Source of the DNA: Leucoraja erinacea
Lineage: Eukaryota
Assembly: GCF_028641065.1 (NCBI RefSeq)
Contig: NC_073407.1
Location: forward strand, 18,290,001 to 18,354,000
DNA: 64,000 nucleotides
Direction of reading: 5' to 3'
Shown: piece by piece, positions 26,160 through 49,944 of the stretch
How positions within the stretch are numbered: the first letter of the stretch is position 1
Layout: each line of letters begins with the position of its first letter
Position numbers and translations under genes: made by a program
Notes under the pieces: generated by a model
Told to the model about the DNA's origin: nothing
The model's input: the letters and a program-made list of their open reading frames with translations, nothing else
The model's database searches: none

Positions 26160-26590
26160 CCAGGACTTCATTAACTTCACCACTAATTTCCATTCTATAC
26201 TCAAATTCACTTGGACCATCTCTGACACCTCGTTCTGTGCACCCCTCTTGAACTATTAACTGTTGCCTGTTATAAACCCCACAACTATCTAGATCACACT
26301 TCTTCCCACCCTACTTCCTGCAAAGACTCTATCCTCCTACTCCCAATTCCTCTGTCTACGCTGCATCTGCGCCCAAGATGAGATTCCATTCCAGGACATC
26401 TGAGATGTCCTCATTCTTTAGGGAACAGGGGTTCCCCACTTCCATCATTGATGAGGCCCTCATACATGTCTCCTCGTTCCCCCTCATCTCTGCTGTTAGT
26501 TCCCGCCTTGTTATAACATGGATAGAGTCCCCCTAGTCCTTGCTTTTCATCCCATCAGCCGTCACACACAACACACAATCTTCCAACATC
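26160..26590 (+). mobile_element. Penelope-like RT C-terminal remnant
   Basis: Degenerate ...LKFTWTISD...SSHPTSCKDSI.YSQFL.LR.IC... ; paralogous to 38940-39605. Confidence 0.7.
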
Positions 26591-27408: not shown

Positions 27409-28431
27409 GTAAACTAATGTATTCTTGTTTTACAGTGCACTAAATATATAATGTTCCACCACCCCAGCACCAGTTATTTTAGATCTAAATTGCTTTAGAA
27501 ATGAAATTCACAAAAAAAATCCAATTGAAAATAATCTGAGAAAATAACATGTATTTTCACATGTTGAAATTTATTTTTTTAAATAAAACCTCTTTACAGT
27601 GGAAAAAATGTAGTTAAAAATATCAGACTTTTCATGTTTTACCAAGTAACATGTATTTATTTTAATCATGAGCCTGTCACATAACTGGACACTATAACAA
27701 AGTAATAAGATTATTCTGGTATCTGTATGAAATATTTTGTATAGTAAAAGTAATTGTGAAAACAGACACTATTTGCCTTTTTAGGGAAATGTATCTATCT
27801 TAACTGGCTTTAGTTATATATAAAAAAAAAAACACTTTACATGATTTGACCTGTAAAAATGTTGACACAAAAATATCAGTAAAGGCAAAACAAGAAAATT
27901 GTTGAACAATAATCCCATGTTGGATATGCTTTTTCACGTTTGCTACGAAGGAGAAATTGAGTACCTTGTGCATGAATAGGTCATTAGTGCATTGCAAAAT
28001 AAATTAGTCTCTTCTCGTTGTTATTTCTTTAAGTGGGACGGTGGGATTAAACTTGAACATAATACATTGCTGATTTCTTAGCAGGGTTCATTCGTCAAGA
28101 ACATTTACTCAATTTTAAAATTATACAAAAAGTGTATTTTTCAAAGAAGTGCAGTGGTTCAATCTATGCAATCTGTCAAGCTATGCAATCATTTTCAACT
28201 AATTACTTCCCTACTGTATGTATGTAAACATGTGTGAAATTCTCAATCTTTAAATAGCAGCTTAAAATCACTACAGGAACAAACTGACAAATTGAGATAG
28301 ATTGAAATAGCGCGATCCCCAGGTAAATCCATCAACTGCAGCAGTCAATTACCCCATTAATTTTATTTTTTTTATTAAAAAAGTGTCCAGTGTCGAAAAG
28401 CAAAATATATTCAATTAAAAAAACACACATT

Positions 28432-28676
28432 CTACAAGTAAAAATCCACCTTGGTGGCTACGGTTTTGCAGCCTTTGTCTGAATAGATCTTTTCATTTTC
28501 TGGGAAGTATGTCATTTCATCAGCTACAGCAGTAATAATTTCCTCATCCGCCTCATAACCCCTGGCTACCAGTTCTTCCTTGACACACAACTTGACATGT
28601 TTATATTCCAGAGGAAGGAATGGGACAAAGTAGTCAATCACGTTTCTATCAATGAGGCTGGTGTGCCAGAATCCAC
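28432..28676 (-). CDS. tor1: Torsin-1 copy 1, exon 5 ([27 protein letters not shown]...[15 protein letters not shown])
   Basis: 245-nt terminal exon; sensor-II GCK motif; five exons give a 1008-nt ORF (335 aa). Confidence 0.96.
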
Positions 28677-29581
28677 CTATCCAATTAAACAAAAATACAT
28701 TAGTTTACAAAGATCACATCAGGCAAAGCGTCAAAATCATACAGCCATTCATATCTGAACTTGGGTTTTGTACCATTTCCATTTGCATCGTTTTAAAATT
28801 CTTCATTACCCTAAACACATCACAATCTACGTAATCTTGACCAAACCATAAATCCGTCAGGATCTCTGTAGATCACCAGCTGTGGACCTGCATAATCATT
28901 CCACCATTTGTTCAGCTATCAGCATCAGCAATAAGCATCTTCCAGTTCCTTCCCTTAACATCGGCCTTTAAGATGCTTCATTGACCAATCATTTGGTCAC
29001 CTGTGCTATTACCGTTTCAAACTTTTATTGGATAACAATTTTTATAGAAGTGAAGCCTTCCCAATATTTTACAAGCTTCAAGCTCCTGCTGCACTGAATT
29101 AGCCTTCAACCAAACATTGTGGAAACTTAGCAATAAATGTCTGTGCTCCTGACACTACAAGAAGAAAAGGCAATCCGCCAGTGCAGTAACCTTTGATGGG
29201 AAAACAAATAAAACTGTAGATGCTGAAATCTGAAACAAAAGCAGAGATGCTAGAAGAACTCAAGCGTTATCTGTGGAAAGATAAACCAGTCAACATTTCC
29301 AGTCAGTGATCCTTCCTCAGAACAGAACTTTCAGCACTTTGATTACCCTCAAGTAGTCAATGCTGGAAAGCACATAAATGCAAACTGCAAGCATGTCAGA
29401 ATAGAATTAGATGCATGCAGCTCCCAACATGAGCCTGTCAAACCTGTATAAGGAATGCCATAGATGTGCACTGGTAACTAGAATACTCATGGAAGTGGAA
29501 AAAGATATGAACAGATAAACAAAGGCACATTGTTGAAAAACGTCTAACATAGCCTTCATGAAATTGACAATGGATGTTTAA

Positions 29582-29858
29582 TTTAGTTTAGAGATACAGC
29601 ATGGAAACAGTCCTTTCGGTCCAGCAAGTCCATGCCAACCAACACACACCCATACACTCGTTCTATCCCACACACTAGGGACAATTTACAGAAACCAATT
29701 AACCTACAAACCCGCACCTCTTTGGAATGGGGGAGGAAACCAACACCGGTCACAGGGAGGATGTACAAACTCCATACACACAGCACCCGTAGTCAGGATC
29801 AAACCCAGGTCTCTGGCACTGGACGGCAGCAATTTTACCGCTGCGCCACTGTGCCGCC
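29582..29858 (-). mobile_element. tRNA-derived V-SINE (HE1-like); paralogs at ~49379-49652 and ~63855-64000
   Basis: Minus strand GGCGGCACAGTGGCGCAGCGGT (A box) ... GGGTTTGATCC (B box), V-core-like GGTTTCCTCCC..TCCAAAGA, (CTAAA)n tail. Confidence 0.8.
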
Positions 29859-30039
29859 ACAATGGTTGTACAGATTTCCAATTGGGGAGCATATTTTGTT
29901 CCAGTGTTCTTCATTGCACATTCCTCATTTTAAGCAAAAAAGTATATATTAATCAAATTGTACAAAGAAGCTTCCAATAATTCCAAGTTGAACCAGTGCA
30001 GCTCATTTCAAAATGCCAAAATTTAGCATACATACTTAC

Positions 30040-30167
30040 TGTTTTTGTTATTGAAGACTCCGATAGACAGTTTACTGTCAAGATCTTTCAATTGAATTTC
30101 CTCCCTTTTGCTTCCTTTGTGCCAAAAGTCCAGTGCAATCTCAGTGATCCTCTCTCCACCTGCATTG
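30040..30167 (-). CDS. tor1: Torsin-1 copy 1, exon 4 (SNAGGERITEIALDFW...VFNNKNS)
   Basis: 128-nt AG/GT exon; sensor-1 SN. Confidence 0.96.
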
Positions 30168-31717
30168 CTGTTCACAGCAAATAATAGTGATTTATAACAA
30201 ATAACCAAACACTAGCTGGCATAGGCTTAAGGTGAGAGGGGAGAGATTTATGGGGCAAAATTTTCACTCGGAATATAGTCTGTATGTGGAATAAGCTGCC
30301 AGAGGAAGCTGTAAAAGTGTAAACAATTATGGACATCTATATGGATAGGAAGGTTTCTGCGGGCTACAGGCCAAATGCAGGCCAACAAGACCAGGCCTGT
30401 ATACCAACTTTGGTCAACATAGACATGGTGGACCAAAAGGCCAGTTTCATGCTGTACAGCTCTATGACAAGTCACAAAGGGTATCCTCTGGAGCTTGCAG
30501 GCTTTAATACACCTCAACTCAACAAAACATAACTACCCCATCCTTCGCAAGAATTTCTACATCATGAGGCTCCAGAAAATTTATCATGAAATCTCTGATG
30601 GCATCTCACTGTAGTACTGATGAAGTGATGGAACAGTTAGAGATGTCTTCTTTAAAATAAAATGTTAAATATGCCCTCCAAGCTGATTGTCGAATATTCT
30701 ATTGTGTTATTTTGCAGAAGACCAGGGAAGCTCCCTCCCGTGTCTTGACCAATACAAATCCCACAATCAATTTCAGGCACAGAAATTATCTGACTAATTA
30801 TCAAATGTGTTTGTGGGAGCTGTTGTGCTCAGATCAGCTGGCCTGCTTCCTATGGGCAGCACAGTGGCATAGATATGAGTGCTCCTGCTTCAGCGCCAGT
30901 GGCCCAAGTTCAAATTTGATTGGGTGCTGACTGTGTGGAGCTTACATTCTTTCCTGTGACAACAAGTTTCTTACTGGGGTCTCAAATTTTCTCTCACATC
31001 CCCAAAAAGTGCTGTGTGGTTGGTTAATTAGCCTTGCGTGGGGTTGGGTGGTAGAACCTGGAGGGAATTAATGAGAGTGGAGATGAATAGGGAAAATTAG
31101 TGGGGGGGGGGGGGGGGTGGTACTGTTCTGACTGGTCATAGGTTTGATAGGTTGAAATAAACTCCTTCCATTAGGAAATATGGAAATGACCACTTCGGAG
31201 GTATTTCATGGACTTTATAGTATTCTGGTCAGTATTATATAACAAGATATTACATGAATGCAAGTTAATTCTTATTCTTTAAGAATGCTTGTTTGGTGTT
31301 AAGGGGTTATGGGAAGAAGGCAGGAGAATGGGATTGAGAGGCAAAGATAGATCAGCCATGATTGAATGGCAGAGTAGACTTGATGGGCTGAATGGCCTAA
31401 TTCTGCTCCTCAAATTAATAAACAAACAAATAATTTGAACATCATGTAAAATGGCATGCTTCAGTTGTTGCTCAGCTCTTAGACCACTGCTTGCTTTGTT
31501 GTCTGTTGTTCTACAATGACTGATCATGCATTACATTTATTCCCTCCATCATAATTTCAATACCATTTACAATATATTACAAAGCCTTCAGTAAATGTGC
31601 AATTATTGTCAATAAAATAATGTACCCAATTCATTTCTATTTCAAATTCAGTATTTTTATTCCTTAAAGTTAATGATAGACTTTGTTCATGTGATTCACT
31701 ATAAATATATATTTTAC

Positions 31718-31893
31718 CTCAGAAAAATGAAAATCGCCTTCCGGTACACCACTCCATCAATGTTATCATAGTACTCCAAATAAGGCTTAATGGCATCAAT
31801 AAGGCCTGCTTGCATCTTGTCCATTTCATCAAAAATGAACATGGACCTGTCACACGTGGACACATTACCACGGATCCATTTCTGCAGCTGCTC
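31718..31893 (-). CDS. tor1: Torsin-1 copy 1, exon 3 ([27 protein letters not shown]...KAIFIFLS)
   Basis: 176-nt AG/GT exon; Walker B FIFDEMDK. Confidence 0.96.
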
Positions 31894-33758
31894 CTAAGGA
31901 TAGACATTTATTTTGTATGAAATATATTCACAGAAGCAACAACTCTTCACCCCACCACCACAAATCCCCAAACACACCTATTCTCAACACAAACACAGCA
32001 TCACTGAGATGATTATATATTATCCCCAAGTCAGGGTTGATGATATTACAGGACTTTGCCTCGTTATGGCAAGAACAAAAATCACTATAAATAAATGGTT
32101 GGCTGCTGAAGACGAGTAAATTTGACACTTGATATGCACGTATTGTTATGTAGCTGTCTGGTGAAGCAAGACATTTAAGTACAGAAGAGGCTTAGTTTGG
32201 TCGATTCTGCCTTTCACCACATAATAGAAAAACAAATATTATCTCCACTTGAATCACCAACTCTCACATATAGAATGTCTCAAATACATGTTTATACTTA
32301 TTACTACCAAACATTTGGATATTGCTGCTTCTTATAAGGATCTCTGTTGTCGTTGATGCCATTTCCATGAAGAGACTAAAGAACAATTTATTCCATAAAT
32401 CCTTTAGCTGTGGGGCAACCATTTTTAAGGATGTAAATACAGTATCAAGGCGTATCCAGTAAATTAATATGCACTCAAGTCAATAAACTTCACATGAATT
32501 ACATATTTAAGCAGAAGTACTCTGCAATGTAACCAGAATCATTATTTGGAGGGCAAATGGTCTGATTTGATGTGATACCCATTCCCAATTTTCTTTCCTA
32601 CATCTGCCGAGGTCCATCTCCAAAGCACCGTGCCAGTTCCAATAGCTCTCAGAATGTACCTACATTACATGTGTAGCAGGTTATTCTCCGATACCAGTCA
32701 GGCATCAGAAATGAGTCTGATCATCAAACATGGCCAATTTATCAGTATATGAAGCTTATCTGTCCTGCCCAACTTGAAGGCACCAATCTGCATTATTGCT
32801 TCTCCCAATGTAAGGGTGGGTGGCCTCAATGTGTTATGATTTTTTTTTAAATGAAAGAACTTTTATTTTCATCAATGCTACATTTATTGCTTGTAGTAAA
32901 ATTGGCTCATTTTCTAGCACTGTGATATTCCCTCGTGAATGATTTTCAATAATTGCCTTACATCTAGCATAAGGAAAGTCTTGTTAAGTGTTGGCACTAT
33001 AACGTTTTATGATTAAGTCCCATCAATTGACCAAAACAAAATTGATAACATATTTGTCAATTCCTCAATGAGTATGCTACCAAGTTATCTGCATTGAGTA
33101 TTTAGTGCTCAGCGTTCAGTTGGGTGGGATATCCTAGGCAGCCTCGTTTGTTTTATCTTCTGTAATCTTATGACCACCCAGCTAATCACTCCAAGTCACT
33201 TTTGGGGGCATTTTTTTCCCAATGTACGATTACAATTGCTTTGTTTGAGAACAATCCTCTCAAATGTCGTCGGACTTTTATACTACGTTAAAAAGGCACA
33301 TTATAATGAAGCTGTTGTGATGACATGCAGGAGAAGATTAGAAGCAAATAATCAGTATTGTTTTAATTTATATAATGAAACATTAAATACAAAGAACTGA
33401 TTTCCATGCACCACTTTAATCGCAAGGTTTGGAGGTTGTTTAACTATTTATATTTTTTCTTATGCATTCACCAAAAGTGATTACAATTAGATTAAAACCA
33501 TAACTCACTTGGTGATCCATTATTTTATAAAGAAACTTTTTAAACTGCATGATTAAAACACAGCATTCACCATGCACCAAATTTCTATCATTTCATTCAT
33601 AATCCTTCTGAAAACTTAATTAAAATGCATAACTCACTGCTGATATCCAATACTCTCTATGCTACCCCTCATGTTTTGATTTTTTAACTACGAGGAGCAT
33701 TGCCCCACACAAAATATCCCATCTAGCAATTTAAAATGTACCCATACTCTGATGTTAC

Positions 33759-34024
33759 CTTATAGTGGCTGAGATATTCAGGGTGAGGGAAGTGCAAAGT
33801 GGAGATAAACTGATGAACATATGCACTCTGCAGTCCATTTGTGTAAATGTTCTCAGCTAGTATTTTACTAATTAGGTTTTTGCCGGTCCCGGTCCAGCCA
33901 TGTAGAGACAAAGCTAGAGGTTTTTTAGGGTTTGGATTTGTGAAGAAACCATTAACAGCCTTCAAAACAACTTGCTTGGCAATATGTTGTCCAAATAGTT
34001 TGTTATCCAAGTCCATCTTCAAAC
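33759..34024 (-). CDS. tor1: Torsin-1 copy 1, exon 2 (LFGQHIA...HGWTGTGKN...HFPH)
   Basis: 266-nt AG/GT exon; torsin-type Walker A GWTGTGKN. Confidence 0.97.
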
Positions 34025-36221
34025 CTGGTTATGGAAATAAAAGGTTCAGATTATCACACAAAGAACAAAATTACTTAGAATGCAGAGTTTAACTGTTACA
34101 CACACGTTTCACATTTTTAGTGCATAGCTGAAGGGATGTTAAACATTTGGAGATATTGCCTCTTCATCAGTACATAAAGCGGAGGCACTTTGCTTTCTAA
34201 TGTGGACATCACAGATCCCAAAGCATAAGGAAAGGGGGAATTATCCCTTGTGTCCTGGCCAATGCCTACCCTTAAGCAATGATCGAGTTATGATGCTCTT
34301 TGGTGCACACTTACTCTACACCAATTGGCTGGCATATGAAGCAGGTTTATAATAGAGGCTATACTTCATTGGTTGATGAACCACTTTGAGATAGCCCAAG
34401 GATAATTTTCCAGCGATTCAATGCTTAAAAATGAAAGCACCATTTTAATGTGAAGTGCATTGTACTGAGTACAGTACATTAAAAAAGCAATCAATACCCC
34501 GCCCCATAAGAGTGAAAATGTCTAATTTCTGACCTCGGACTGTTTCTGTACTCAGTTACACATCTGCCAATCCTTAACAACGTCTTAAATTTGCTTCTTT
34601 TCCTACCCTGCAAATGTTTTTGACATTCCTAACGACATAAAGACCGCCTACTTCCATCTTTGTTTCATCATCTGTCCTACTTCATCTAATATCCTTAGAA
34701 AAACCTCATTCATTTACTTGTGTCACTCCAGATTCCAGTCCAGGCAAGTCCTGGCAAGTCTTCTATCCCCATATCTGGAATCTTCAATGCAGGCAGATTC
34801 CTGCTGCTGGGGTTTGACAGGAATCAGTGTTCACCCTTCATGATTTATATTACAAATTAGATTAAGAGACTGTATGAAGCTAAAACAAAATATGCGGGTA
34901 AAGAATAGAACAACATGTTGATTGGTTTAGATGGTTTAGAAGTTTATTGATAATACTGATAGAGGTGGATGTTTCAATGTAAAAAGGAGTTCAAAATCAT
35001 GATAGATATGGACAAATGACATGACTTGGAAGCAGGGGGCAAAGGGAATTCATTCCCTTTGATAGGAGATATAAAAACAAGCATTTTAAACATTGAGATT
35101 GGTAAATTGTGATGTACAGTGTAATCTTGACACACTGGTTCATTTAAATGTGTAAACAAATGTAAATAAGTGAGTACCAGCAATTGGGAAAGTAAATGAT
35201 TTGAACATCTTAATTGCAGAGTTTTTAGTATTAGTTTTAGAGATACAGCATATTTTGGTCCACCAAGTCCATGTTGACCATCAATCACCTGAACACTAAT
35301 TTTATGTTACCCCACTTTTGCATCCTACACTATAGGGGCAATTTACGGAAGCCAATTAACCTACAAACCGGCACGTCTTTCGAATGTGGGAAGAAACCCA
35401 AGCACCCGGAGAAAACCAATGCAGTCGCAGGGTGAACACGCAAACTCCATACAGACAACAACCAGATGGTGTGGAAGTACAATCTCATTTTAGAATGACT
35501 GATAACTAGAACCACCGTCTCAGACAAATAAATGAGGATCACAGCCAGAACGTAGCAATTGGACAGGCGCATGGATTTGCAGGGAATGGAGGGATATGGG
35601 TTACATGCAGGTAGAGATTAATTTTAGCCCAGCATCAATGTTCAGCACCGATATTGTGGGCTGCAGGGCCTGTTCTTGTGCTGTATTGTTCAGATTCAGA
35701 TTCAGATTCAATTTTAATTGTCATTGTCAGTGTACAGTACAGAGACAACGAAATGCATTTACAACGAAATTGTAAATTTCGTGTGTTCTATGTTCTGTGA
35801 GTGTTGGAGGTCAGGAGAGACTAATAAACGTATATCAATTTATGAGAGGCTTCCTGTGGTGTACTGTTTTATCTATTTATTACATTATTATAGAAACAAT
35901 ACTATTTCAATGACCACATTTCACTCTCCATCCATCAAAAGAGACAAATAAAGTTAAGATTAAAAAAACAATTGCTTCTCCCTATTATTTAGGGCCAAGT
36001 TATTACTGGTTTATTGCTGGATTTGTATCCAAATCTGAATTTGCATTGTAATTCCCATCAGCAAATATGTGTTGTGCATTGTACATTGTCACAACTACCC
36101 TGGGGAGAGCAGACGTGTTGCAAGGTGGCCTGTGCAATCTGCATGCAAAAGTCCTGTGGATGCAGTACAAATAAATAGCCGGTGTATGTTAACGTGGCGG
36201 TGAGATGTCACGACCATTTAC

Positions 36222-36414
36222 CTGTCAGGTTGAGTTTCACCCACTCGTCCTCACAACACTCCTGGAACTTGCAGTACAGTTTGGGGAAGGTGGTGAAGAG
36301 GCCGGTCAGAGCGGTGGCCACGCCGACTGCGATGCCCATACTGATGGGCTCCATGGCCGCCACAAAAGGGGTGGACAAGAGCACGAGCAGCACAGCCCGG
36401 ACCATCACCTTCAT
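36222..36414 (-). CDS. tor1: Torsin-1 copy 1, exon 1 (signal peptide, hydrophobic domain, YCKFQECC)
   Basis: ATG at 36414, donor G|GTAAAT; MKVMVRAVLLVLLSTPFVAA-MEPISMGIAVGVATALTGLF. Confidence 0.93.
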
Positions 36415-36782
36415 GTTGTCGGTTTCCTGGCGGCCGCCCCCTAACAGGCGACGAGGCACAAGACCCCGCCTCAACGCAGCGGCCAGCGAGCCCTGACAAC
36501 CCAGCGGAAGAGCATGCGTCGTCACATCCGCCCCCTCTGACCTTTCCCCTTCCCCGCCCGAAACCCTCAGCCAGACATGTTTGTGAGGGGCATCCACACA
36601 GGCAGGAACAATGATCTTATAGCGGAGCAAGATGGTCTGCTCCTACGTAAAACACGTAGTACGGTCATGCGCAGATTCATGGGCGATTATAGGACCCATT
36701 TTAGCAACCAGCCTCCGGCAAAGATCAGATCTTTGTTTCCGCCTCCGCTCTCGTATCTTCACTTTGGTCTTTGACTTTGACC

Positions 36783-37042
36783 ATGCCGTCCATATCTACC
36801 AGTGTTGCCTAGTGTTGCCTACTGCTCTGCGGTGAATTGTTCCAATCGCCAATGTAGGCGACCCGACTTGTCTTTCTTCAGTGTTTAAGAAGGAACTGCA
36901 GATGCTGGAAAATCGAAGGTACACAAAAAAGCTGGAGAAACTCAGCGGGTGCAGCAGCATCTATGGAGCGAAGGAAATAGGCAACGTTTCGGGCTGAAAC
37001 CCTTCTTCAGACTCTCTTCAGGTTCCTCGTTAAGGAGGAAAG
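36783..37042 (+). pseudogene. Disrupted THAP-domain first exon of the P-like transposase
   Basis: Removing a 10-bp tandem duplication (36811-36820) and a repeat insertion (36882-37014, TSD TCTTCAG) gives MPSISTSVAYCSAVNCSNRQCRRPDLSFFRFLVKEER followed by GTAAG; fits the THAP CxAxxCxN...SFFRF pattern. Confidence 0.75.
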
Positions 37043-37836
37043 GTAAGAAAAGACAAATAAATCGCAATAAAAGCGAAAAGATGCCTATGTTCCTTCCACA
37101 GCGTGGGGGGGAGCCTGGCCCGGATCAGCACCAGAGATCTTTGATCAGCACGGCCAAGACACCAGAGTGAAGTTGCGGGGAGGTTTACAATGTTTATTAT
37201 TTAATGTCCCTTCTCTAGTCTGAAATAAAGATCATCATTGGATATAAAAATCAGAAGAAATATAATTGTTTAAGAAGGATCTGCAGATGCTGGAAAATCG
37301 AAGGTACACAAAAAAGCTGGAGAAACTCAGCGGGTGCAGCAGCATCTATGGAGCGAAGGGAAAAGGCAACGTTTCGGGCCGAAACCCTTCTTCAGAAATA
37401 TAATTTCAGAAACCCTTATATTCAGAAATATAATTGTGTGTGTTATATGATTATATACACCTATATCACATTCATGTATGTGTGTTCTTTCCAGCACAAT
37501 CTGGTCAGTTGTATGCTCATGGAATAAAACCATCCTTAAGTTATACATCTTTTGTAAATCTTGCTCAAAACAAATTTAATTTTGTGAAATTCTTCAATTA
37601 GATAACCCCACCATTACAGGCAGATCTCATTCCACTCTCTGGGTATTGGGAAGATCAGACCCCATTTTATTTGTGGAGAAACAACTCCATAGAAAATAAG
37701 CACAAAAACATTCAGTAACATTCCAGGGCTAGAGCAACTGGAATCTTCATATTGCTATTATTTCCCCAAATACTGCAATTGTGAACAGTGTGATTACATT
37801 AGTGTGATTAGATGAATGAATTACAGAGTGCAAGTG

Positions 37837-38284
37837 TAATACAAAATCAACTCAAACACAGCAGATGAGCCATTTAAAAAGAAATGATTTAAAAAACATT
37901 AAAAAAAAAAGAAATTTACCAGAGTCAAAATTTATAAACATTTTATTCTTTAACAAGAATTAACAGAATTATAAACTAACAGAATTATGAATCTAACCCT
38001 ATATCACGCACAAAAACTGTTCCCCCGCAACGTTGATTACCCTGCGAGTCGGGTAGGGTAGGTTCCGGTTAATACAAAATCAACACAAACACAGCTTATG
38101 AGCCATTTAAAAAGAAATGATTTAAAAAACATTAAAAAAGACAATTACCAGTCAAATTTTATTCTTGACAAGAATTAACAGAATTATGAACTAACAGAAT
38201 TATGAATCTAACCCTATATCACACACAAACTGCTCCCCCACAACGTTGATTACACTGCGAGTCGGGTCGGGTAGGTTCCGGTTA
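37837..38284 (+). repeat. Tandem duplication of ~215-230 bp inside the P-like element
   Basis: 37837-38069 and 38070-38284 both run TAATACAAAATCAAC...GGGTAGGTTCCGGTT. Confidence 0.85.
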
Positions 38285-38410
38285 CTAAAATGGGTGGGGA
38301 AAAATGCCCAGGATCCGCTCCGTAACGTACTACACGTCAGCCCATTGCATTTCGCAGAAGTGGCCTATCTTGCTCCGCTATAAGATCTTTGGGCAGGAAC
38401 AAAGATTATA

Positions 38411-38873
38411 GTGATGTTTCACGGCAGTCGGGTCACAACCCGTGCTGTTGCTACGCTACGCCAAGTGGAGTACACGCGATGAACTGCAGGTAAGCACTTA
38501 CCATTGTTTCCAGCGTAGCGGGCCCGTTAAAACCCGCCGAAATTGTCAATTTTTGCGCTGTAAATAATTATGGAAATCGGGATAAGCGTGAGAGACATTT
38601 AGCCTACTTCAGAATTCCAAAAGTGAGGAGGAATGATGGTAGATAGAAGCGAGAGCTGAAGGGACAACAACAGCCAGAGTGTCTCACGCTTACCCCGACT
38701 TCCACAATTTTTTACAGCGCAAAAATTCAACATTTTGGCGGTTTTTAACAGGTAGGAAAGTACGCGTTTCTTGCATTAATAACATATACCGGAAGTTACT
38801 GATGTCCTCCAGATGGATTGAGCGACTCCGTGCGTCAAGCCCTATGACCCAGTGACCTTACGTGCACGCCCCC
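38411..38873. mobile_element. Foldback MITE (internally deleted relative of 56145-57160) inserted at TATA
   Basis: Shares CACGGCAGTCGGGTCAC start and GACCCAGTG...CGTGCA end with 56145-57160; TATA on both sides. Confidence 0.8.
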
Positions 38874-38939
38874 TATAGAGCAGAGCCTGCAATAGTAAGA
38901 GATTTGCAAGACTATCTCAAGAAGTATTAAAGGTGAAGT

Positions 38940-39605
38940 ATCCAGGACTTAGTTAACTTCACCACCAATTCCATCCTATACTCAAATTCACTTGGACCAT
39001 CTCTGACACCTTGTTCTGCGCCCCTCTCTTGATCTCATCGGCTCCATCACAGGAGATATACTACTGACTGATGTCTGTTATAAACCAACTGACTCCCACA
39101 ACTATCCAGACTACACTTCTTCCCACCCTACTTCCTGCAAAAACTCTATCCCCCTACTCCCAATTCCTCTACGCTGCATCTGCGCCCAAGATGAGGTATT
39201 CCATTCTAGGACATCTGAGATGTCCTCATTCTTTGGGGAACGGGGGTTCCCCACTTCCATCATTGATGAGGCCCTCACACATGTCTCCTCGTTCCCCCTC
39301 AGCTGCGCTATTAGTTCCCGCCTAGTCACAACAGGGACAGAGTCCCCCTAGTCCTTTCCTTTCACCCCATCAGCTGTTGCACACAACACACAATCTTCCA
39401 ACATTTTTGCCACCTCCAACGGAACCACCACTAGTCACATCTTCCCTTTTCCCCTTCCGCAGAGAACCTTTCCTCCGCAACTCCCTAGTTAAATCATCCC
39501 TTCCCACCGAAACCACCCTCTCCCCAGGTACCTTCTCCTGCAACCGCAGGAGATGCAACACCTGTCCATATACCTCCTCCCTCAACTCTGTCCAGGGACC
39601 CTGAT
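38940..39605 (+). mobile_element. Penelope-like remnant (RT thumb to Cys-rich linker)
   Basis: PGTFSCNRRRCNTCPY motif of the kind preceding the GIY-YIG endonuclease; paralog of 26160-26590. Confidence 0.75.
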
Positions 39606-39880
39606 AGTCATAGTCTTAGCGATAGTGAAAACAGGCCCCTCGGCCTAACTCGCTCACAGCAGCCAACAATGTCCCAGCTACACTAGTCCCACTTGCCTGC
39701 GTTTGGCCCATATCCCTCCAAACCTGTCCTATCCATGAACCTGTCTAATTGTTTCTTAAACGATGGGATAATCCCAACCTCAATGACCTCTGGCAGCTTG
39801 TTCCATACACCCACCACCCTTTGTGTGAAAAATTTACCATTCGGATTCCTATTAAATCTTTTCCCGTAGGTGAAGGGGTA

Positions 39881-40602
39881 CAGTGCCCACCATAATGTTT
39901 GGGACAAAGACCCATGTTATTTATTTGCCTCTGTACTCCCCAATTTGAGATTTGTAATAGAAAAACATCACATGTGGTTAAAGTGCACATTGTCAAATTT
40001 TATTAAAAGCCATTTTTATACATTTTGGTTTCACCATGTAGAAATTCCAATTTGTAATTGCTCAGGTGTGTTTAATTGCCTCCTTAATGCAGGTATAAGA
40101 GAGCTCTCAGCACCTAATCTTTCCTCCAGTCTATCCATCACCTTTGGAAAATCTTATTTCTATTTATCAACATGAGGACCAAAGTTATGCCAATGAAAGT
40201 CAGATAAGCCATTATGAGACTGAGAAACAAGAATAAAACTGATAGAGACATCAGCCAAACCGTCCGCAGAAGACTTCATGAACAGAAATACAGAGGCTAC
40301 ACTGCAAGATTCAAACCACTGGTTACCCGCAAAAATAGGATGGCCAGGTTACAGTTTCCCAAGAAGTACTTAATAGAGCAACCACAGCTCTGGAAAAAGG
40401 TCTTGTGGACAGATGAGACAAAGATTAACTTATATTAGAGTGATGGCAAGAGCAAAGTATGTGAAGGAACTGCCCAAGATCCAAAGCATACCACCTCATC
40501 TCTGAAACGCGGTGGTGGGAGTGTTATGATCTGGGCATGTATGGCTGCTGAAGGTACTGGCTAGCTTATCTTCATTGATGATACAACTGATGATGGTAGT
40601 AG
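39881..40602 (+). mobile_element. Tc1 5' half (copy B) up to the LTR insertion site
   Basis: TA|CAGTGCCC left TIR; ORF TVRRRLHEQKYRG...WKKVLWTDETKINLY. Confidence 0.88.
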
Positions 40603-41300
40603 TGTAGCGGCCCCTGGTGGCGGCCTTGTTAATATCGAACCCTCGCGATTGACTGCGCAGTCACATGAGCGCGGGAGTTTCATCGCAGGTTCATTCTAGC
40701 GCCACGCGAATAGAATACACATCGTTAAAATTTTGCCGTCTATCTCGACTTGGGTGACTACTTTGTTTGCATTTCAAAAGAAAGAATTTTTGCACACCCT
40801 AAGTCTCGACTCGCCAAACTGGTGACCCTGTTAGTCCGAATGGATTTTGGGCATTTGACATGCAAGCCGCCGCCATCCCCGACGCCCAGCAAAAACGTTG
40901 TGGGTCTGAAGATGCCCATGTCGAAAGCACTGTAGTTGCACTCCGGAGCCTGCAGCTGACGGCTGAAAAAGGTCAACGGCTGCCAGCGGCCATCAACGAG
41001 CTGCTCCAGGTCACCACCTATAGCAGCATCCGAGGCGTATATGGTGAGTGCGGTAGGGGCGGAAGCACGCGGGTGCCCCAACATGGTAGCGTTTACCAGG
41101 GCTACCTTGGCACCCTCGAAAGAGGCGTCCGCCTCCTCGGACCACACGAGGTTCCGCGTTTTACCCGCCAGCCACCGGAACAGGAGGCTCATGATGTCAG
41201 CATCTGCCGGCACGAAACGGCGATAAAAATTCACCATGCCGATAATCTCCTGTAGCCCCTTCACGGAGAGCGGCCGGGAGAACTTCCGGATAGTCTCGAC
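40603..41300. mobile_element. Gypsy 5' LTR (40603-40817), PBS and an inverted RT-connection/RNase H fragment
   Basis: PBS TGGTGACCC at 40820; minus-strand ORF GMVNFYRRFVP...YASDAAIGGDLEQ...WQPLTFFSRQL...YSAFD. Confidence 0.85.
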
Positions 41301-41304
41301 CTGG

Positions 41305-42794
41305 CAAGAGAATATTTTTGTTTAGCATCTGTTTTGCAGCATTATTTTTCCTTTTGGATAGGATGACCCCTTTAAACTGAAGACGGGAGGTATGATTGAT
41401 ATGAAGATCCTGAAGGACCGAAAGCGAGAAAAGTGAGGAATCGAAAAAGCCATTTATTTGTTCATTTCATTTTTATACACAATAATATAGCCCAGCCGTC
41501 AGCCTTTCAGCCCGTGCTCCTTCAACATGGTGTTTTAAAATAAAGCTATACTTGAGGCCCAAATAAAGCCTGTTGCAGCTTTTAGACTAAATAGCAATCA
41601 TGTAACTATATGCTTTGTCATACCCACCAGTATGGTTATGCTGTTTCTGTGGTATAGAAGAATATGATGTAGCTTTACTGTTTTTATTTTCCATTCATTC
41701 ACCCAAATGACAAAAATGCAAAGTACATAAAACAGAAGTTTTGTTCATTTAAGATGTGTCTGAAAAATGAACGAACTACATGGACTAAAACTCCTATAAA
41801 CTGCTATCTGCATGTTTGGAAATTATTATAGCCTAGAATTTAACTCACCTGATTGTGTTTGCTGTACACCCTTTATACTGGCCAGGGTCCCATTTTGACA
41901 CACTCCATTCAAACTTGCCTGCTTCATTAGAAAAATTATTATTTTACAGTGGCAAGCTTTTTCTTGTAATGAAGGTGAATTAGAGAAATGTTGATGTACT
42001 AATAGGAGCAATACCCAACCGTCAAAAAAAATGTGCCAGTTCTGCACCACAGTGCCGAAGGTGCTGAATTATCGGAGTTTACTGTAATGTGAAGGGCAGA
42101 AGGCAGTGAAGTACAACTCGTGCCTCTTGTGCCACCTGGCAAGCTGGTGTGAGGTGCCTTAGTATAATTTAGACTTGACGCCTCTTTTCTCTCCTACCCC
42201 TTCCCCACCACATCTATCCTTATACCTCCATTCATAGAACAGTACCGCATGGGAACAGACCTTTCAGTCCAGGTCGAACATGACACCAAGTTAAAGTGAT
42301 CTCTCTCTTGCCTACATCTGATTCATATCTTGCCATACCCTGCATATCCATATGTCTATCCAAAAGCCTCTTAAATGCTATTATTGTATCTACCTGCACC
42401 ACAACCCTGGCAGTGCATTCCAGGCACCCACCAATATGGGGAAAAGCAACTTGTCCTGCACATCTCTCTTAACTTCTGCTCCCCTCACCTTAAACCTACA
42501 ATCTGTCTTTGACATTTTCACCCTGGCGGGAAAAGGACTCCATCTATCTTATCTAGCCCTCCCATAATTTTTTATAACCTCTATCAGGTCTCCCCTCAGC
42601 CTCCAACACTCCAGAGAAAATAATCTTATAGCTACCTCCCTGCCTTTAACCTGTCTGAAAGCACTTGGCCTATTTTCTGCACTCTTCTGCAACTTTGGGA
42701 AAGTGTTAAGAATGAAATGCAATCTATCAGCCCTTGGTATCAGTTGCAGGCATTGTGATGATCATTATAAACTCTCCAATCTTGCAATTGTGCC
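41305..42794 (+). pseudogene. C9orf78: Duplicated C9orf78 fragment (end of intron 3, exon 4 at 41362-41432, part of intron 4)
   Basis: Colinear with ~16250-17747; exon 4 identical 71/71 with splice sites intact; no other C9orf78 exons nearby. Confidence 0.92.
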
Positions 42795-43723: not shown

Positions 43724-45890
43724 CCCTCCATAATGTTTGGGACACAATGAGACCCAAAGGTTAATGGAATGATGTTCACTTTGTTGCCCTCCATAATGTT
43801 TGGGACAAAGACCCATAGGTTATTTATTTGCCTCTGTACTCCACAATTTGAGATTTGTAATAGAAAAAACATCACATGCGCTTAAAGTGCACATCGTCAA
43901 ATTTTATTAAAAGCCATTTTTATACATTTTGGTTTCGCCATGTAGAGATTACAGCTGTGTTTATCCATAGTCCCCCCCCCCCCCCCCCCCCCCCCCACCC
44001 ATTTCAGGGCACCATAATGTTTGGGACACATGGCTTCACAGGTGTTTGTAATTGCTCAGGTGTGTGCTTAATTGCCTCCTTCATGCAGGTATAAGAGAGC
44101 TTCAGCACCTAATCTTTCCTCCGGTCTTTCCATCACCTCTGGAAAATGTTATTGCTGTTTATCAACATGAGGACCAAAGTTGTGCCAATGAAAGTCAAAG
44201 AAGCCATTATGAGAAACATTATGAGACTGAGAAACAAGAAATACAACTGTTAGAGACATCAGCCAAACCGTCCGCAGAAGACTTCATGAACAGAAATACA
44301 GAGGCTACACCGCAAGTTGCAAACCACTGGTTAGCCGCAAAAATAGGATGGCCAGGTTACAGTTTGCCAAGAAATACTTAATAGAGCAACCACAGTTCTG
44401 GAAAAAGGTCTTGTGGACAGATGAGACAAAGATTAACTTATATCAGACTGATGGCAAGAGCAAAGTATGAGGAGGAACTGCCCAAGATCCAAAGCATACC
44501 ACCTCATCTGTGAACCACGGTGGTGGGGAGTGTTATGGCCTGGGCATGTATGGCTGCTGAAGGTACTGGCTCACTTATCTTCACTGGTGATTACAACTAA
44601 TGGTAGTAGTGTAGCGGCCCCTAGTGGTGGCCTTGTTACTATCGAACCCTCGCGATTGGCTGGCACGGTCACATGAGCGAGGGAGCTTCTTTGCGGATTT
44701 TTTTTGTAACCGTTCATTCTAGCGCCACGGGAATAGAATACACATCGTTAAAATTTGGCTGTCTAACTCGACTCGGGTGACTACTTTGTTTGCGTTTCAA
44801 AATAAAGAATTTTTGCACACCTTAACGTCTCGACTCGTCAAAGTAGAATAATAAATTCTGAAGTGTATCGACATAACCTGTCTGCTCAAGTTCAAACAAA
44901 TGTCTCAAAACTCATTGGCCGGCGGTTCATTCTACAGCAAGACAATGATCCCAAACGTACATATTATCTAAATGGTGGCCGATTGGGAAAGGGGGAGATG
45001 CAGCGAGACCTGGGTGTCATGGTACACCAGTCATTGAAGGTAGGCATGCAGGTGCAGCAGGCAGTAAAGAAAGCGAATGGTATGTTAGCTTTCATTGCAA
45101 AAGGATTTGAGTATAGGAGCAGAGAGGTTCTACTGCAGTTGTACAGGGTCTTGGTGAGACCACACCTGGAGTATTGCGTACAGTTTTGGTCTCCAAATCT
45201 GAGGAAGGACATTATTGCCATAGAGGGAGTGCAGAGACGGTTCACCAGACTGATTCCTGGGATGTCAGGACTGTCTTATGAAGAAAGACTGGATAGACTT
45301 GGTTTATACTCTCTAGAATTTAGAAGATTGAGAGGGGATCTTATAGAAACTTACAAAATTCTTAAGGGGTTGGACAGGCTAGATGCAGGAAGATTGTTCC
45401 CAATGTTAGGGAAGTCCAGGACAAGGGGTCACAGCTTAAGGATAAAGGGGAAATCCTTTAAAACCGAGATGAGAAGAACTTTTTTCACGCAGAGAGTGGT
45501 GAATCTCTGGAACTCTCTGCCACAGAGGGTAGTTGAGGCCAGTTCATTGGCTATATTTAAGAGGGAGTTAGATGTGGCCCTTGTGGCTAAGGGGATCAGG
45601 GGGTATGGAGAGAAGGCAGGTACGGGATACTGAGTTGGATGATCAGCCATGATCATATTGAATGGCGGTGCAGGCTCGAAGGGCCGAATGGCCTACTCCT
45701 GCACCTAATTTCTATGTTTCTATACTGCTAAAGCAACAAAGGAGTTTTTCACAGCTAAAAATTCTTGAGTGGCCAAGTCAATCACCCGATCTGAACCCAA
45801 TTGAGCATGACTTTTATATGCTGAAGAGAAAGCTGAAGTGCACTTGTTCCCAGAACAAGGATAAGCTAAAGATGGCTCCAATACAGGCCT
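43724..45890 (+). mobile_element. Tc1 (copy C) with nested solo LTR (44610-44841) and nested CR1 LINE
   Basis: Left TIR with duplicated tip, transposase fragments including FILQQDNDPK and WPSQSPDLNPIE; solo LTR with AGTAG TSD. Confidence 0.88.
44961..45722 (+). mobile_element. 5'-truncated CR1-clade LINE (ORF2 C-terminus and 3' UTR)
   Basis: Uninterrupted frame RDLGVMVH...LVRPHLEYCVQFWSP...RTRGHSLRI...FFTQRVVNLWNSLP; CTATGTTTCTA tail; splits the Tc1 sequence CCCAAAC|ATACTGCT. Confidence 0.92.
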
Positions 45891-46050
45891 TATACAGGTT
45901 TGACAGGCTCATGTTGGGAGCTGCATGCATCTAATTCTATTCTGACATGCTTGCTGTTTGCATTTATGTGCTTTTTATTTGATTTGATTTTTTTTTTTTA
46001 ATTGTCCAGTGTCGAAAAGCAAAATATATTCAATTAAAAACACACACATT

Positions 46051-46295
46051 CTACAAGTAATAATGCACCCTGGCGGCTACGGTTTTGCAGCCTTTGTCTG
46101 GATAGATCTTTTCATGTTCTGGAAAGTATGTCATTTCATCAGCTACAGCAGTAATAATTTTCTCATCCGCCTGATAACCCCTGGCTACCAGTTCTTCCTT
46201 GACACACAACTTGACATGTTTATATTCCAGAGGAAGTAAAGGGACAAAGTAGTCAATCACATTACAATCAATGAGGCTGGTGTGCCAGAATCCAC
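46051..46295 (-). CDS. tor1: Torsin-1 copy 2, exon 5 (...[17 protein letters not shown])
   Basis: 245-nt terminal exon, open frame; five exons give a 981-nt ORF (326 aa). Confidence 0.9.
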
Positions 46296-46365
46296 CTATC
46301 CAATTAAACAAAAGTACATTAGTATACAAAGATCACATCAGGCAAAGCGTCAAAATTATACAGCC

Positions 46366-48631
46366 CAAGGCTGCCAACATTGGGTGAGAGTTGGGAGTGA
46401 GAAATTGTGAGAGACCAAGCCCGAGGGAGCATAGCGACGGGGGGTGGGGGTGGGGAGTGGGCGGAGGGTGTCCCTCTCCCATTGGTACGGAACATTTGCA
46501 TTTTTCAGCTTGAAATTGTGCAATATGGTGCATACTGTAGTGAGTCTTTTAACTTACACTTGAATGCAATATATGCTTTAAATTGGATTGGAGCGTTTTT
46601 GAAAGGGGGGAGGCTGTGTGATCACTGGCCTTGGGGGAACCCGGTGAGGGAATGGAGCAACCGAGTGTGGAGAGGGTGTGGAAGAAGAGTGTCCCTCCTC
46701 CCAGGGTAGGAACTTGTTGGAATTTGATGTATTAAAATCATGTTTTAGTGCACTGTAGAAGTATGATTTCAATGTTTTTTGTATGAAGTATTTTTAAGAG
46801 GTAACTTTTTAAGGGGTAACTTTATCCACACAAAGGGTGATGGGTGTATGGAACAAGCTGCCAGAGGAGGTAGTTGATGCAAAGACCATCCCAACATTTA
46901 AGAAAAAGTTAGACTGATACATAGATAGGACAGGTTTGGAGGTATAGACCAAAAGCAGGTAGCGTAGCTGGGAGCGTAGGCGGGTGTGGGCAAGTTGCGC
47001 CGAAGGGCCTGTTTTCACACTGTATCACTCTATGACTACATTATACCTCCACCATGCATGAATGTTTCAAAATCAAGTGATTGAGTTTTATTGCCATGTA
47101 CTCAAGCATAAAAACATAGAAAATAGGTGCAGGAATAGGCCATCGGCCCTTCGAGCCAGCACTGCCATTCAATATGATCATGGCTATTCATCTAAAATCA
47201 GTACCTCTTTCCTGTTTTTCCCCCATATCCCTTGATGTCATTAACCCCAAGAACTAAATATATCCCTCTCTTGAAAACATCCAATTGGCCAGCACTGCCT
47301 TCTGTGGCAGAGAATTCCACAGATTCACAACCCTCTGCGTGAAGTTTGTTCTCATCTCAGTCCTAACTGCCCCCCCTTTATTCTTAAACTGTGACCCATG
47401 GTTCTGAACACCACCAACATCGGGAACATTTTTCCTGCAGTTACAGTAAGTGAAAATCTAGTAGGCAAGCAGGATGCTTTCACCAACCACCCCCATTTGA
47501 AGTCCACTATCTTCCACCGTATCTACCCAGTGCATGGTACTTACTTCCAGCAGCCACTGGTTGTCCTCCAGGATGCACCGAGCCACAGCCTGATTCATGC
47601 CGAATCACACCTGGCTGAATTCGGCAGAGACTCTCACGGCAGCGGTGCAACGCTTCGACGCCTCCGACGGCCCGGGACTCTTGCACTGAGGCTGCTCCAT
47701 GGCCGGAGCTGCAGTGAGCAACTCCCCAGCCCAGCAAACACTCACCAGCCCCGCTCCCCGTCTGCATCTGTCCCCGCCCCTGCTTCTGCTTCCAACACCC
47801 GTGGCCCATGCAGTTGATATGAGTGTTGAAATATTCGTTGATCACAGAATTTCTCACAACAGAGCGAGAGAAATTGGTGAAATGCTTGATTCTCACGCCC
47901 AATGCATGGGAGTTGGCAGCCCTGCCTCTCTATCCCCTTCTCCCTCACCCCCTCTCTCCCTCCCCTCTCTCTCCCTCCCACCTCACTCATCCCTCTCTCT
48001 CCTCTCACGTCTCTCACTTCGCCCCTCTCCTCCTCTCTCTTCCCCATTTCTCCCTCCCACCTCATTCTCCCCCTGGCTCTCTCCCCCCTCTATCTTTTTC
48101 CTCTGTCTCTATCTCCTCTTTCTCTTTGCCCCCCCATCTCTCTTTCCCCCTCTCTCTTTTACCACCCCTATCTCTTCCCCCCTCTCCCATTCTCTGCTAT
48201 CCTCTCACCCCTCTCTCTCTCTCCCCCCCCTCTCTCCCCCCCCCCCCCCTCTCTCCCCTCCCCTCTCCCTCTTCTCTCTCTCCATTCATCCCCCCTCTGT
48301 CACTCCCTTCTCTCTCCTCTCACCCCCTCTCTCTCTCCCTCCCGTCTCCTTCCCCTCTCTCTCTCTCCACCTCCCTTTGAGAGTCTGTCCCTTTGGCACA
48401 GAGACTCTCGCGGCAGCGGCGCAACGCTTCAGACGCCTCCGACGACCCGGGACGTGCGCTGCTCCATGAACTGCAACTAGCGACTCACCAGCCCTGCAAA
48501 CACTCGACAGCCCCGCACACACTCGCAGCCCCGCAAACACTCACCACAGAGCGTGAGAAATTTCTGATCAGCGTGAGAGTTTGCTTGAGGGCGTGATTCT
48601 CACGCTCAAAGCGTGAGAATTGGCAGCCCTG
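46366..48631. mobile_element. Non-autonomous TIR transposon with 5-bp TSD CAGCC (possibly hAT5-like), carrying nested LINE fragments and a CT-rich tract
   Basis: TIR CAAGGCTGCCAA / TTGGCAGCCCTG; CAGCC at 46361-46365 and 48632-48636; empty site in copy 1 (ATACAGCCATTC near 28742). Confidence 0.85.
47925..48378 (+). repeat. C/T-rich low-complexity polypyrimidine tract
   Basis: About 450 bp almost entirely C and T; explains the spurious Pro/Ser/Leu ORFs. Confidence 0.95.
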
Positions 48632-49816
48632 CAGCCATTCATATCTGAGCTCCGGTTATGTACCAATTCAATTTGCATGGTTTTAAAATTCTTCATTGCA
48701 CTAAACACATCACAATCTACGTAGTCTTGACCAAACCATAAATCCGTCAGGATCTCTAAAGATCATCAGCTCTGGTCTTGCATAATCAATCCACCATTTG
48801 TTCAGCTACCAGCATCCTCTAGTTCCTTCCCTTAACCTCTGCCTTTAAGATGCTTCATTGACCAATCATTTGGTCACCTGTGCTATTACCTGTGCTATTA
48901 CCACGGAATTAGCCTTCAACCAAACCTTGTTGAAACTTAGCAATAAATGTCTGTGCTCCTGAGACTAGAAGAAGAAAAGGCAATCCGCCAGTGCAGTTAC
49001 CTTAGATGGAAAACAAATACATCTGTAGATGTTGAAATCTGAAGCAGAGATGCTAGTAGAACTCAAGCACTATCTGTGGAAAGATAAATCAGTCAACATT
49101 TCCAGTCAGTGATCCTTCCTCAGAAGAACTTTCAGCACTTTGATTACCCTCAAGTAGTCAATACTGGAAAGCACATAAATGCAAACAGCAAGCATGTCAG
49201 AATAGAATTAGATGCATGCAGCTCCCAACATGAGCCTGTCAAACCTGTATAAGGAATGCCATAGATGTGCACTGGTAACTAGAATACTCATGGAAGTGGA
49301 AAAAGATATGAACAGATAAACAAAGGCACAATGTCCAAAAACGTCTAACATAGCCTTCATGAAATTGACAAGGATGTTTAGTTTAGTTTAGAGATACAGC
49401 ATGGAAACAGTCCTTTCGGCCCAGCCAGTCCACGTCGACCAACGCTCACCCATACACCAGTTCTATCCCACGCACCAGGGACAATTTACAGAAACCAATT
49501 AACCTACAAACCCGCACCTCTTTGGAATGGGGGAGGAAACCAACACCGTCACAGGGAGGATGTACAAACTCCATACACACAGCACCCGTAGTCAGGACCC
49601 AGGTCTCTGGCACTGGACGGCAGCAATTTTACTGCTGCGCCACTGTGCCGCCACAATGGTTGTACAGATTTCCAATTGGTGAGCATATTTTGTTCCAGTG
49701 TTCTTCATTGCACATTCCTCATGTTAAGCAAAAAAAGTATATATTAATCAAATTGTACAAAGAAGATTCCAAGTGCAGCTCATTTCAAACTGCCAAAATT
49801 TAGCATACATACTTAC

Positions 49817-49944
49817 TGTCTTTGTTATTGAAGACCCCGATAGACAGTTTACTTTCAAGATCTTTCAATTGAATTTCCTCCCTTTTGATTCCTCTGCGCC
49901 AAAAGTCCAGTGCAATCTCAGTAATCCTCGCTCCACCTGCCTGG
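49817..49944 (-). CDS. tor1: Torsin-1 copy 2, exon 4 (SQAGGARITEIALDFWRRG...VFNNKDS)
   Basis: 128-nt AG/GT exon, open; sensor-1 N to Q. Confidence 0.9.

Follow-up and report, generated by a model that had tools for sequence, protein, structure and literature searches.

A truncated P-superfamily terminal repeat at a seam of the torsin gene array of Leucoraja erinacea, best read as an excision scar

The torsin array and its paralogous segments

The sequence analysed (the window) is a 64,000-nucleotide stretch of the Leucoraja erinacea genome (assembly GCF_028641065.1, contig NC_073407.1, positions 18,290,001 to 18,354,000, forward strand), and all coordinates below are those of the window. A torsin array was identified on the minus strand by its Torsin and TOR1A_C domains. 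The neighbouring gene, on the plus strand, carries a Hep_59 domain and is presumably C9orf78. The array comprises the following segments:

26103..36608, minus strand: torsin copy 1, with five open exons and canonical splice sites; start at 36414, last exon ending near 28435
38887..40818, plus strand: truncated copy X, equivalent to 26107-26925 of copy 1
41301..42794, plus strand: block Y, a copy of the neighbouring gene's intron 16247-17747; second backward junction
43785..57875, minus strand: torsin copy 2, with five open exons and canonical splice sites; start at 57689; ends in an empty 8-bp target
61490..64000, minus strand: 3' part of torsin copy 3, which extends past the window; third backward junction

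Copy X contains, in order, about 55 bp of low-copy DNA, a retroelement fragment (38944-39600; no Pfam hit), which we take to be Penelope-like, the left part of a Tc1 element, and an LTR followed by a primer-site-like motif. It is followed by Gypsy RT/RNase H sequence on the minus strand and then by the copy of intron 16247-17747. This copy, block Y, differs from the intron at 68 of 1,467 columns (4.6%) and meets the Gypsy RT/RNase H sequence in a short stretch that both have in common, with no P tip. The target at the end of copy 2 is followed by upstream DNA (57876 to about 59640) that is absent from copy 1. Ahead of copy 3 lie Gypsy integrase fragments (about 59640-61489).

Four Tc1 elements carry an LTR at the same base, in copy 1, X (39879-40818), copy 2 and copy 3 (regions of 26587, 40497, 44505 and 61490), and an independent Tc1 at 24132-25715 has no LTR. 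Copies 1 and 2 carry a solo LTR; X and copy 3 retain internal Gypsy sequence. Because of the four Tc1 and LTR paralogs, block Y and the third copy, the piece at 38887-40818 is a separate truncated copy and not the start of copy 2. The tip described below thus joins copy 1 to copy X, and copy 2 belongs to a wider event that starts at least 10 kb further left. The initial annotation had instead proposed a single duplication of 26107-36608. When 26000-36700 was aligned against 38800-58000, 8,939 of the 10,506 bp of this unit were covered, but just 9,170 of the 18,993 bp of the partner (38883-57875) matched it; with four paralogs and two more backward junctions in addition, a single duplication does not account for the locus.

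Divergences among the paralogs are star-like (about 5-6%). There are 192 differences in 3,710 positions between copies 1 and 2 (5.2%), and 40 in 478 columns between copy 1 and copy X. Private differences in three-way comparisons numbered 29, 35 and 42 in 1,086 columns (p=0.30) and 9, 12 and 18 in 319 columns (p=0.20), and informative sites in the LTR split 1:1:1. These divergences do not decide between a deletion and a duplication history. Ordering of the paralogs by private or shared differences was attempted and set aside, giving no pairing of copy 1 with copy 2. Assignment of the RT/RNase H sequence beside X and the integrase pieces before copy 3 to a single Gypsy subfamily was likewise rejected, as the best relatives were just 43-53% identical.

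Further features of the array were recorded. The Gypsy pieces at 59640-61489 and 40830-41303 are oppositely oriented: near 60540, two integrase fragments that are just 67% alike adjoin each other, and the RT/RNase H piece after the LTR of X is inverted. This arrangement suggests that one Gypsy was inserted, in reverse, within another. The copy 2 Tc1 has at its left tip (43694-43822) a short tandem duplication and the first bases of the Tc1 end are gone; this is a break at a Tc1 end with templated filler. Nine codons are missing, in frame, from the first exon of copy 2, in the hydrophobic part that follows the signal peptide (36298-36360 versus 57600-57640), and exons 2 and 5 of this copy carry several amino-acid changes and are still open. 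Two near-perfect palindromic elements, 88-90% self-complementary, lie at 10527-10727 (approximately 200 bp) and 12911-13247 (approximately 340 bp).

The P element, its target and three terminal-repeat tips

Upstream of copy 1 lies a P-superfamily element, termed P1, inserted in an 8-bp target and followed by a second, truncated terminal-repeat end (tip A). Two further tips (B and C) lie elsewhere in the window. The relevant features are:

36601..36608, plus strand: left copy of the 8-bp target, 187 bp upstream of the torsin copy 1 start codon (36414, minus strand)
36609..38391, plus strand: P1, an internally deleted P-superfamily element of 1,783 bp, with 25-nt terminal repeats and a THAP exon remnant
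38392..38399, plus strand: right copy of the 8-bp target, between P1 and tip A
38400..38410, plus strand: outer half of tip A, terminal-repeat nt 1-11 (9/11), ending in the left TATA
38411..38873: non-autonomous DNA element (MITE), high copy, with TATA on each side (38407-38410 and 38874-38877)
38874..38886, plus strand: right TATA (38874-38877) and inner half of tip A (38878-38886), terminal-repeat nt 12-20 (7/9)
63411..63430, minus strand: tip B, terminal-repeat nt 1-20 (18/20)
12102..12117, plus strand: tip C, a lone copy of terminal-repeat nt 1-16 (16/16)

The terminal repeats of P1 are 25 nt long, begin with CA and are alike at 24 of 25 positions. Its target duplication is perfect (8/8, at 36601 and 38392) and is present as a single copy at the paralogous empty site, 57868. 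The target site first proposed for the element was borne out, and its exact edges were corrected (P1 ends at 38391; the right target occupies 38392-38399). A THAP exon remnant lies at about 36783-36879 and resumes near 37015-37043, past an insertion at 36882-37011 that is presumably a SINE, as is 37267-37396. The 34-residue frame of the remnant (36784-36885) gave no Pfam hit alone and matched five proteins at E<=0.001. Four of these have a THAP hit (three above the curated cut-off), one also having a Tnp_P_element HTH hit, and the fifth is an unrelated repeat protein. Identity to the protein with both domains is 83% over 23 residues. A longer relative of that protein, P0012, contains THAP, P HTH, TNP-like RNase H and GTP-binding domains; a tblastn search of the window with P0012 gave no match at E<=0.001, so that the window lacks the catalytic RNase H and GTP-binding part. 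P1 is a non-autonomous, internally deleted P-superfamily derivative.

The P1 family is dispersed. In all four related sequencing runs, bins containing the two ends of P1 reached a summed contig depth of 5e4-1e6, against 37-306 for exon and promoter bins in the same four runs, summed contig depth not being equal to copy number. Contigs that jump from 36874 to 37015 represent family copies with no SINE inside the THAP exon. The terminal-repeat pattern had no matches in viral contigs. Ten loci in metagenome contigs were dismissed as chance, since only 1-4 of 11 bases fitted past the pattern and none gave a blastn match to the window.

The THAP start of P1 and the torsin start lie head to head, 370 bp apart and facing outward. 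Named skate proteins begin with or include the P1-family THAP exon, one of them fused to a B-box (TRIM55-like) protein, and the first exon of the family may have been recruited into host transcripts. The closest named relatives of the P1 transposon peptide are from thorny skate and little skate. The protein that is 83% identical over 23 residues (36811-36879) is named from Priapulus caudatus and is 68% identical to little-skate proteins across most of its length, a high value for such distant animals; horizontal transfer is a possible explanation.

The initial annotation had described a terminal-repeat tip beyond the right target duplication, split by a TATA-flanked MITE, and this description held. 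With the MITE and one TATA removed, tip A matches terminal-repeat nt 1-20 at 16 of 20 positions, ungapped. Two readings were scored; the alternative, in which TA only is taken out, gave 15/20. No 20-mer among the 127,630 in the window scored 15 or 16, and the four that scored at least 17 were the two P1 ends and tips B and C. For pieces of 11 and 9 nt drawn independently at a fixed position, the probability of a score of at least 16 is 1.0e-6; taken singly, the two halves have probabilities of 3e-4 and 7e-4. A gapped reading made by eye, with two nucleotides fewer on the left and two more on the right, is workable too: a TATA occurs within the repeat, at nt 10-13, and would be a natural MITE target. 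Both the gapped and the ungapped readings stop at nt 20. Given this fit to the resident repeat of P1, the 20-mer need not be the terminus of a related subfamily.

The MITE has imperfect G-rich termini of approximately 13 nt (by eye). A relative lies at 56146-57160 in the first intron of copy 2. Opposite this relative (56142-57164), the site in copy 1 (35830-35845) carries two TATA-like motifs with 6-8 additional bases between them, possibly the excision footprint of a MITE relative.

On the plus strand of the window, the target 8-mer GGCAGGAA occurs at 36601, 38392 and 57868 only, and on the minus strand once, at 17590. The outer end of tip A sits directly on 38392-38399 and starts at nt 1 of the repeat. 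A single copy of the target thus separates the right end of P1 from tip A, the layout of a double insertion (tandem dimer). The same target was hit twice, as first proposed, with the layout target-P-target-tip, and the junction does lie at another P-family end on this 8-bp target and arose from a break at a P end. Similarity between the upstream regions of copies 1 and 2 was also confirmed to stop exactly at the 8-mer (36608/57875). In copy 2, 57868-57875 is an empty site, the terminal repeat being absent from 57876 on (8/20).

At its inner end, nt 17-19 of tip A (38883-38885) are identical to 26103-26105 of copy 1 and nt 20 mismatches 26106, giving a 3-nt microhomology and one mismatch. The reported homology of the flank of tip A to 26107 onward is real (26103-26589 versus 38883-39404, 83.7% with gaps) but begins 4 nt earlier, at 26103/38883, inside the tip. 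To the left of this breakpoint, 25700-26102 has no partner within 26200-64000 except a 21-bp Tc1 end. The first 55 bp or so behind tip A are low-copy: summed contig depth at 38939 was 24-52 in three of the four runs and 0 in the fourth, compared with 2,427-5,952 at 38968. For this reason the match between 38887 onward and 26107 onward is more than that of the next repeat alone.

Contigs over this region were searched in the four runs. Among the matches listed for 36300-39150, which were swamped by the SINEs, no contig piece or joint spanned the tip A junction, a result that proves nothing either way. Contigs end exactly at 36608 in two of the four runs, and in a third run two end at 36605, a weak hint that there are possibly two different sequences after the target. 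In the sequencing-run search, 20 of the 24 listed rows shared part of 35850-39000; none shared at least half of its words (best 0.47). The lack of a spanning contig among the matches listed would suit a 20-mer that is a chance likeness or an assembly artefact. This explanation is very improbable given a match with p about 1e-6 at a fixed position and given that X, as a supposed assembly copy, differs from copy 1 at 40 of 478 columns.

Tip B has its outer end on the 8-mer at 63431-63438, of which the intact paralogs have a single copy (29148-29155 in copy 1). The innermost 3 nt of the tip (nt 18-20) equal 28523-28525 of copy 1, again a 3-nt microhomology. Relative to two intact paralogs, and as read from local alignments, tip B marks a plain 622-bp deletion (28526-29147 in copy 1 numbering), through which copy 3 lost most of its final torsin exon together with the splice acceptor. 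Tips A and B thus have one anatomy: target, 20 nt of repeat, 3-nt microhomology and distant DNA. The sole change from the repeat that they have in common is a CpG-type change at nt 16; among the read rows listed, none covers the variant positions. Tip C has no partner end or repeated target nearby and its site has no paralog for comparison; it lies between the Hep_59 gene and a gene that we take to be USP20-like.

No truncated P ends of lengths other than 16-20 nt were found in the window. A scan for 12-nt stubs with up to two mismatches gave 15 matches, against 7-16 in eight shuffles, placing shorter stubs at chance level. These lengths bear on a further explanation, in which no transposase cut took place: a double insertion made a P-target-P dimer and an ordinary large deletion stopped by chance 20 nt into the second element. 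Large deletions with no P tip do exist here (26589/40497, 42794 and 59640), and small deletions at tandem junctions are described for hobo dimers in the cited part of 10.1101/158386. Set against this are three lone 16-20-nt tips in 64 kb, two of which stop exactly at nt 20, with no other truncated lengths, and an ordinary deletion is accordingly considered improbable.

Readings of the tip A junction

Judged from the sequence of the junction, the best reading of tip A is as a P excision scar; such structures are known, and this one is natural and vertebrate. The chance that the junction arose as an excision deletion inside an already duplicated array is put at about even. A P-family element would first have occupied the 8-bp target approximately 190 bp upstream of the torsin start, as indicated by the target, the empty site in copy 2 and the tip. 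Transposase would then have excised it with a long stagger, leaving the first 20 or so nt of the repeat as a 3' tail on the gene side, by analogy with the tails of 17 nt known from Drosophila P. Through its final 3-4 nt, this tail would have paired with the equivalent of 26103-26106 in the next array unit, where the microhomology is seen; the partner site was presumably on the same chromosome, further downstream. All DNA in between would have been lost: the opposite tip with its copy of the target, no less than 1.8 kb of the upstream DNA still present in copy 2, and the beginning of the next unit. Subsequently the MITE would have inserted into the TATA within the tip, and another P from this family into the same 8-mer, to give the target-P-target-tip structure observed. 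As a result, copy 1 would retain approximately 190 bp of its own upstream DNA, facing the P1 THAP remnant head to head.

The order of these last insertions is suggested by the differences of the tip from the repeat (4/20) compared with those between the P1 ends (1/25), and tip A is probably older than P1. Four differences in 20 have a probability of 0.003-0.03 at 3-6% divergence, or 0.02-0.12 if counted as three events. The starting structure may also have been a P-target-P dimer whose right member was excised later.

Several findings favour an excision deletion. Tip A matches the repeat at 16/20 at a fixed position (p about 1e-6), and tip B, with the same length, the same geometry of outer end on target and a 3-nt microhomology, marks a plain 622-bp deletion. 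The array predates the tip unit and extends beyond it, as seen from the four Tc1 and LTR paralogs, the block from 10 kb further left and the third copy. The solo LTRs of copies 1 and 2 and the internal Gypsy sequence of X and copy 3 are consistent with one pair that was block-duplicated and trimmed twice. The empty target site fits the 14-bp fly target motif at 10/14, a level reached by 40 of the 63,827 14-mers in the window.

Other findings sit less well with it. There are three backward junctions for four paralogs, and reading each as a duplication costs no more events. Private differences and LTR sites do not pair copy 1 with copy 2. The stubs are 20, 20 and 16 nt long against 17 or less in the fly, the target of tip B is poor on the fly motif (4-5/14), and the fourth microhomology base at tip A is mismatched in copy 1. 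Solo LTRs can also arise twice independently.

The principal competitor is duplication from the excision break itself. Here the 20-nt gene-side tail would have paired with 26103-26106 on the homolog or sister, creating a tandem copy X that was later truncated. The junction does run backwards, from 36608 to 26103, with microhomology and with homology stopping exactly at both points; four paralogs are joined by three backward junctions; and star-like divergences of approximately 5-6% would suit several duplications in a short time among co-existing haplotypes. Nevertheless, tip B, the sole tip readable against intact paralogs, is a deletion. The combination of an empty site and solo LTR in copy 2 with internal sequence in X would also require haplotype exchange or two solo-LTR events. 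Tail-retaining repair in flies, in the cited parts of PMC8951532 and PMC2895639, gave deletions and no tail-retaining duplication. The original proposal that the tip junction was the break that created the duplication therefore stands as possible yet unproven, equal anatomy at 63411-63430 being a pure deletion. We regard a copy-making break as a minority possibility, and an excision deletion in an existing array as somewhat likelier.

The two readings correspond to two histories of approximately five events each by our own tally. In the first, a pair consisting of a solo-LTR and a full-Gypsy unit would have been block-duplicated and each block would have lost its spacer, the first by P excision. 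In the second, all three backward junctions would be duplications, one of them from a P tail, with haplotype exchange or two solo-LTR events in addition. The first history is favoured on two grounds: the sole stub that intact paralogs allow to be read marks a deletion, and the fly work cited here also has deletion as its outcome.

Hybrid-element insertion had been offered as one possible cause, break repair being the other. In the form considered here, hybrid-element insertion or alternative transposition made the duplication together with a whole P, the original breakpoint lay slightly left of 26103, and imprecise excision later left the left tip. An empty site in the downstream copy is predicted, and 57868-57875 is empty. 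Alternative transposition, as far as cited from PMC3744419, yields tandem duplications in which the first element stays at the old target and one end lies at a new one. At the junction, though, no outer element end is found at 38886/38887: it is the cut inner end (nt 17-20) that adjoins the new site, through microhomology, and the outer end lies at the old target. This does not fit hybrid-element insertion as the direct cause. One event more is needed than for excision deletion or excision-break duplication, and two further junctions separate copy 2 from tip A, so the empty site need not belong to the same event. Overall, this origin is considered unlikely.

The lengths attributable to the tip only are 16 nt for A, 17 nt for B and 16 nt for C, within the fly range. 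The match to the repeat runs to nt 20 in tips A and B, where nt 17-19 (A) and nt 18-20 (B) are also sequence of the flank. As microhomology is usable only if those bases are in the tail, these two tips hint, at n=2, at a tail of at least 20 nt, and so at a P stagger that may be longer than the 17 nt of the fly, or else at a few bases that were copied off a different P copy ahead of the join. Such aborted repair synthesis is described in the cited part of PMC2895639 as common in a fly excision assay. Tips A and B exceed the fly 17-nt tail limit and otherwise behave like a fly footprint.

A broader proposal is that cartilaginous fish had a P transposase with a stagger of approximately 20 nt and that the genome is strewn with 16-20-nt stubs marking transposase-made host deletions and duplications, including both the break that made one torsin copy and the deletion that killed another. 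This is speculative and in our judgement doubtful. If true, the geometry of cleavage by an extinct vertebrate P enzyme would be readable directly from stub lengths in the genome, and the stubs would mark changes in gene copy number that have been overlooked so far.

Comparison with known systems

Searches for P footprints, stubs or torsin arrays from sharks and rays found no paper on them among the titles listed, in literature that excluded most subscription journals and repeat databases; as an indication of novelty this is weak evidence. What appears to be new here is tip B, on a plain 622-bp deletion with the anatomy of tip A, together with the 16-nt tip at 12102. Of the torsin copies at this locus, two are intact and differ in the DNA upstream of them, and the third was broken by the same P family; three P stubs in 64 kb are tied to the reshaping of this gene array. 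A long staggered cut is the signature of P transposition, and in the cited sources rearrangements made by P are described mostly from flies. The present locus is a natural vertebrate one, where two junctions that damage or rearrange genes carry repeat stubs roughly as long as the tails. If such stubs are common, they would offer a test for a long stagger shared by vertebrate P enzymes and for its length. They would also be a marker of transposase-made deletions and duplications that repeat annotation misses at 20 bp.

In the cited passages, Drosophila P transposase makes a 17-nt staggered cut (PMC2577343, PMC7776569). The 17-nt 3' tails remain on the flanks and are joined at short microhomologies, at times with loss past the target (PMC2895639, Table 1), and imprecise excision in the fly yields one-sided deletions of kilobases (PMC8951532). 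All three stubs in the window are consistent with such excision. The stagger length is given in the cited parts of the P literature for the fly enzyme only, and those of PMC3698922 and PMC8230255 give no footprint lengths. With the excision footprints described from Drosophila in the cited parts of PMC2895639, PMC8951532 and PMC7776569, tips A and B share an outer end on an 8-bp target, a 3-nt microhomology join and loss of the other side. The stubs here differ in being natural and old (paralogs about 5-8% apart), in lying in a cartilaginous-fish genome and in that one stub is at a gene-array seam. Their lengths of 20, 20 and 16 nt also compare with 17 nt or less in the footprints described from the fly.

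Double insertion of P at one target, with the target kept between the elements, is described in the cited part of McGurk and Barbash (10.1101/158386). As there, one copy of an 8-bp target lies here between two element ends near a promoter; the second member here differs from those described in being 20 nt only and split by a MITE.

The zebrafish element Pdre and its enzyme THAP9, as described in the cited parts of PMC10983969 and PMC7776569, likewise represent a vertebrate P superfamily with CA...TG ends, an 8-bp target duplication and internally deleted copies. Flanking deletions made by THAP9 are given in PMC10983969 as larger than those of the fly enzyme, the two ends being cut at different times; these large losses on excision in cell assays are the feature comparable to the losses linked to stubs here. 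On the descriptions cited, the terminal repeats differ in length (25 nt here against 13), and the likeness noted is one of features.

Alternative transposition of maize Ac/Ds joins an outer end to a new target, as set out in the cited part of PMC3744419, which also cites P hybrid-element insertion. Hybrid-element insertion and reversed-ends Ac/Ds events, as covered there, resemble the present locus in placing a transposon end at a tandem-repeat seam, with an empty target in the downstream copy. In those events the whole outer end meets the new target, whereas here it is a cut inner end, joined through microhomology. By this comparison, the anatomy of the tip is of the Drosophila P excision type and unlike that of hybrid-element insertion.
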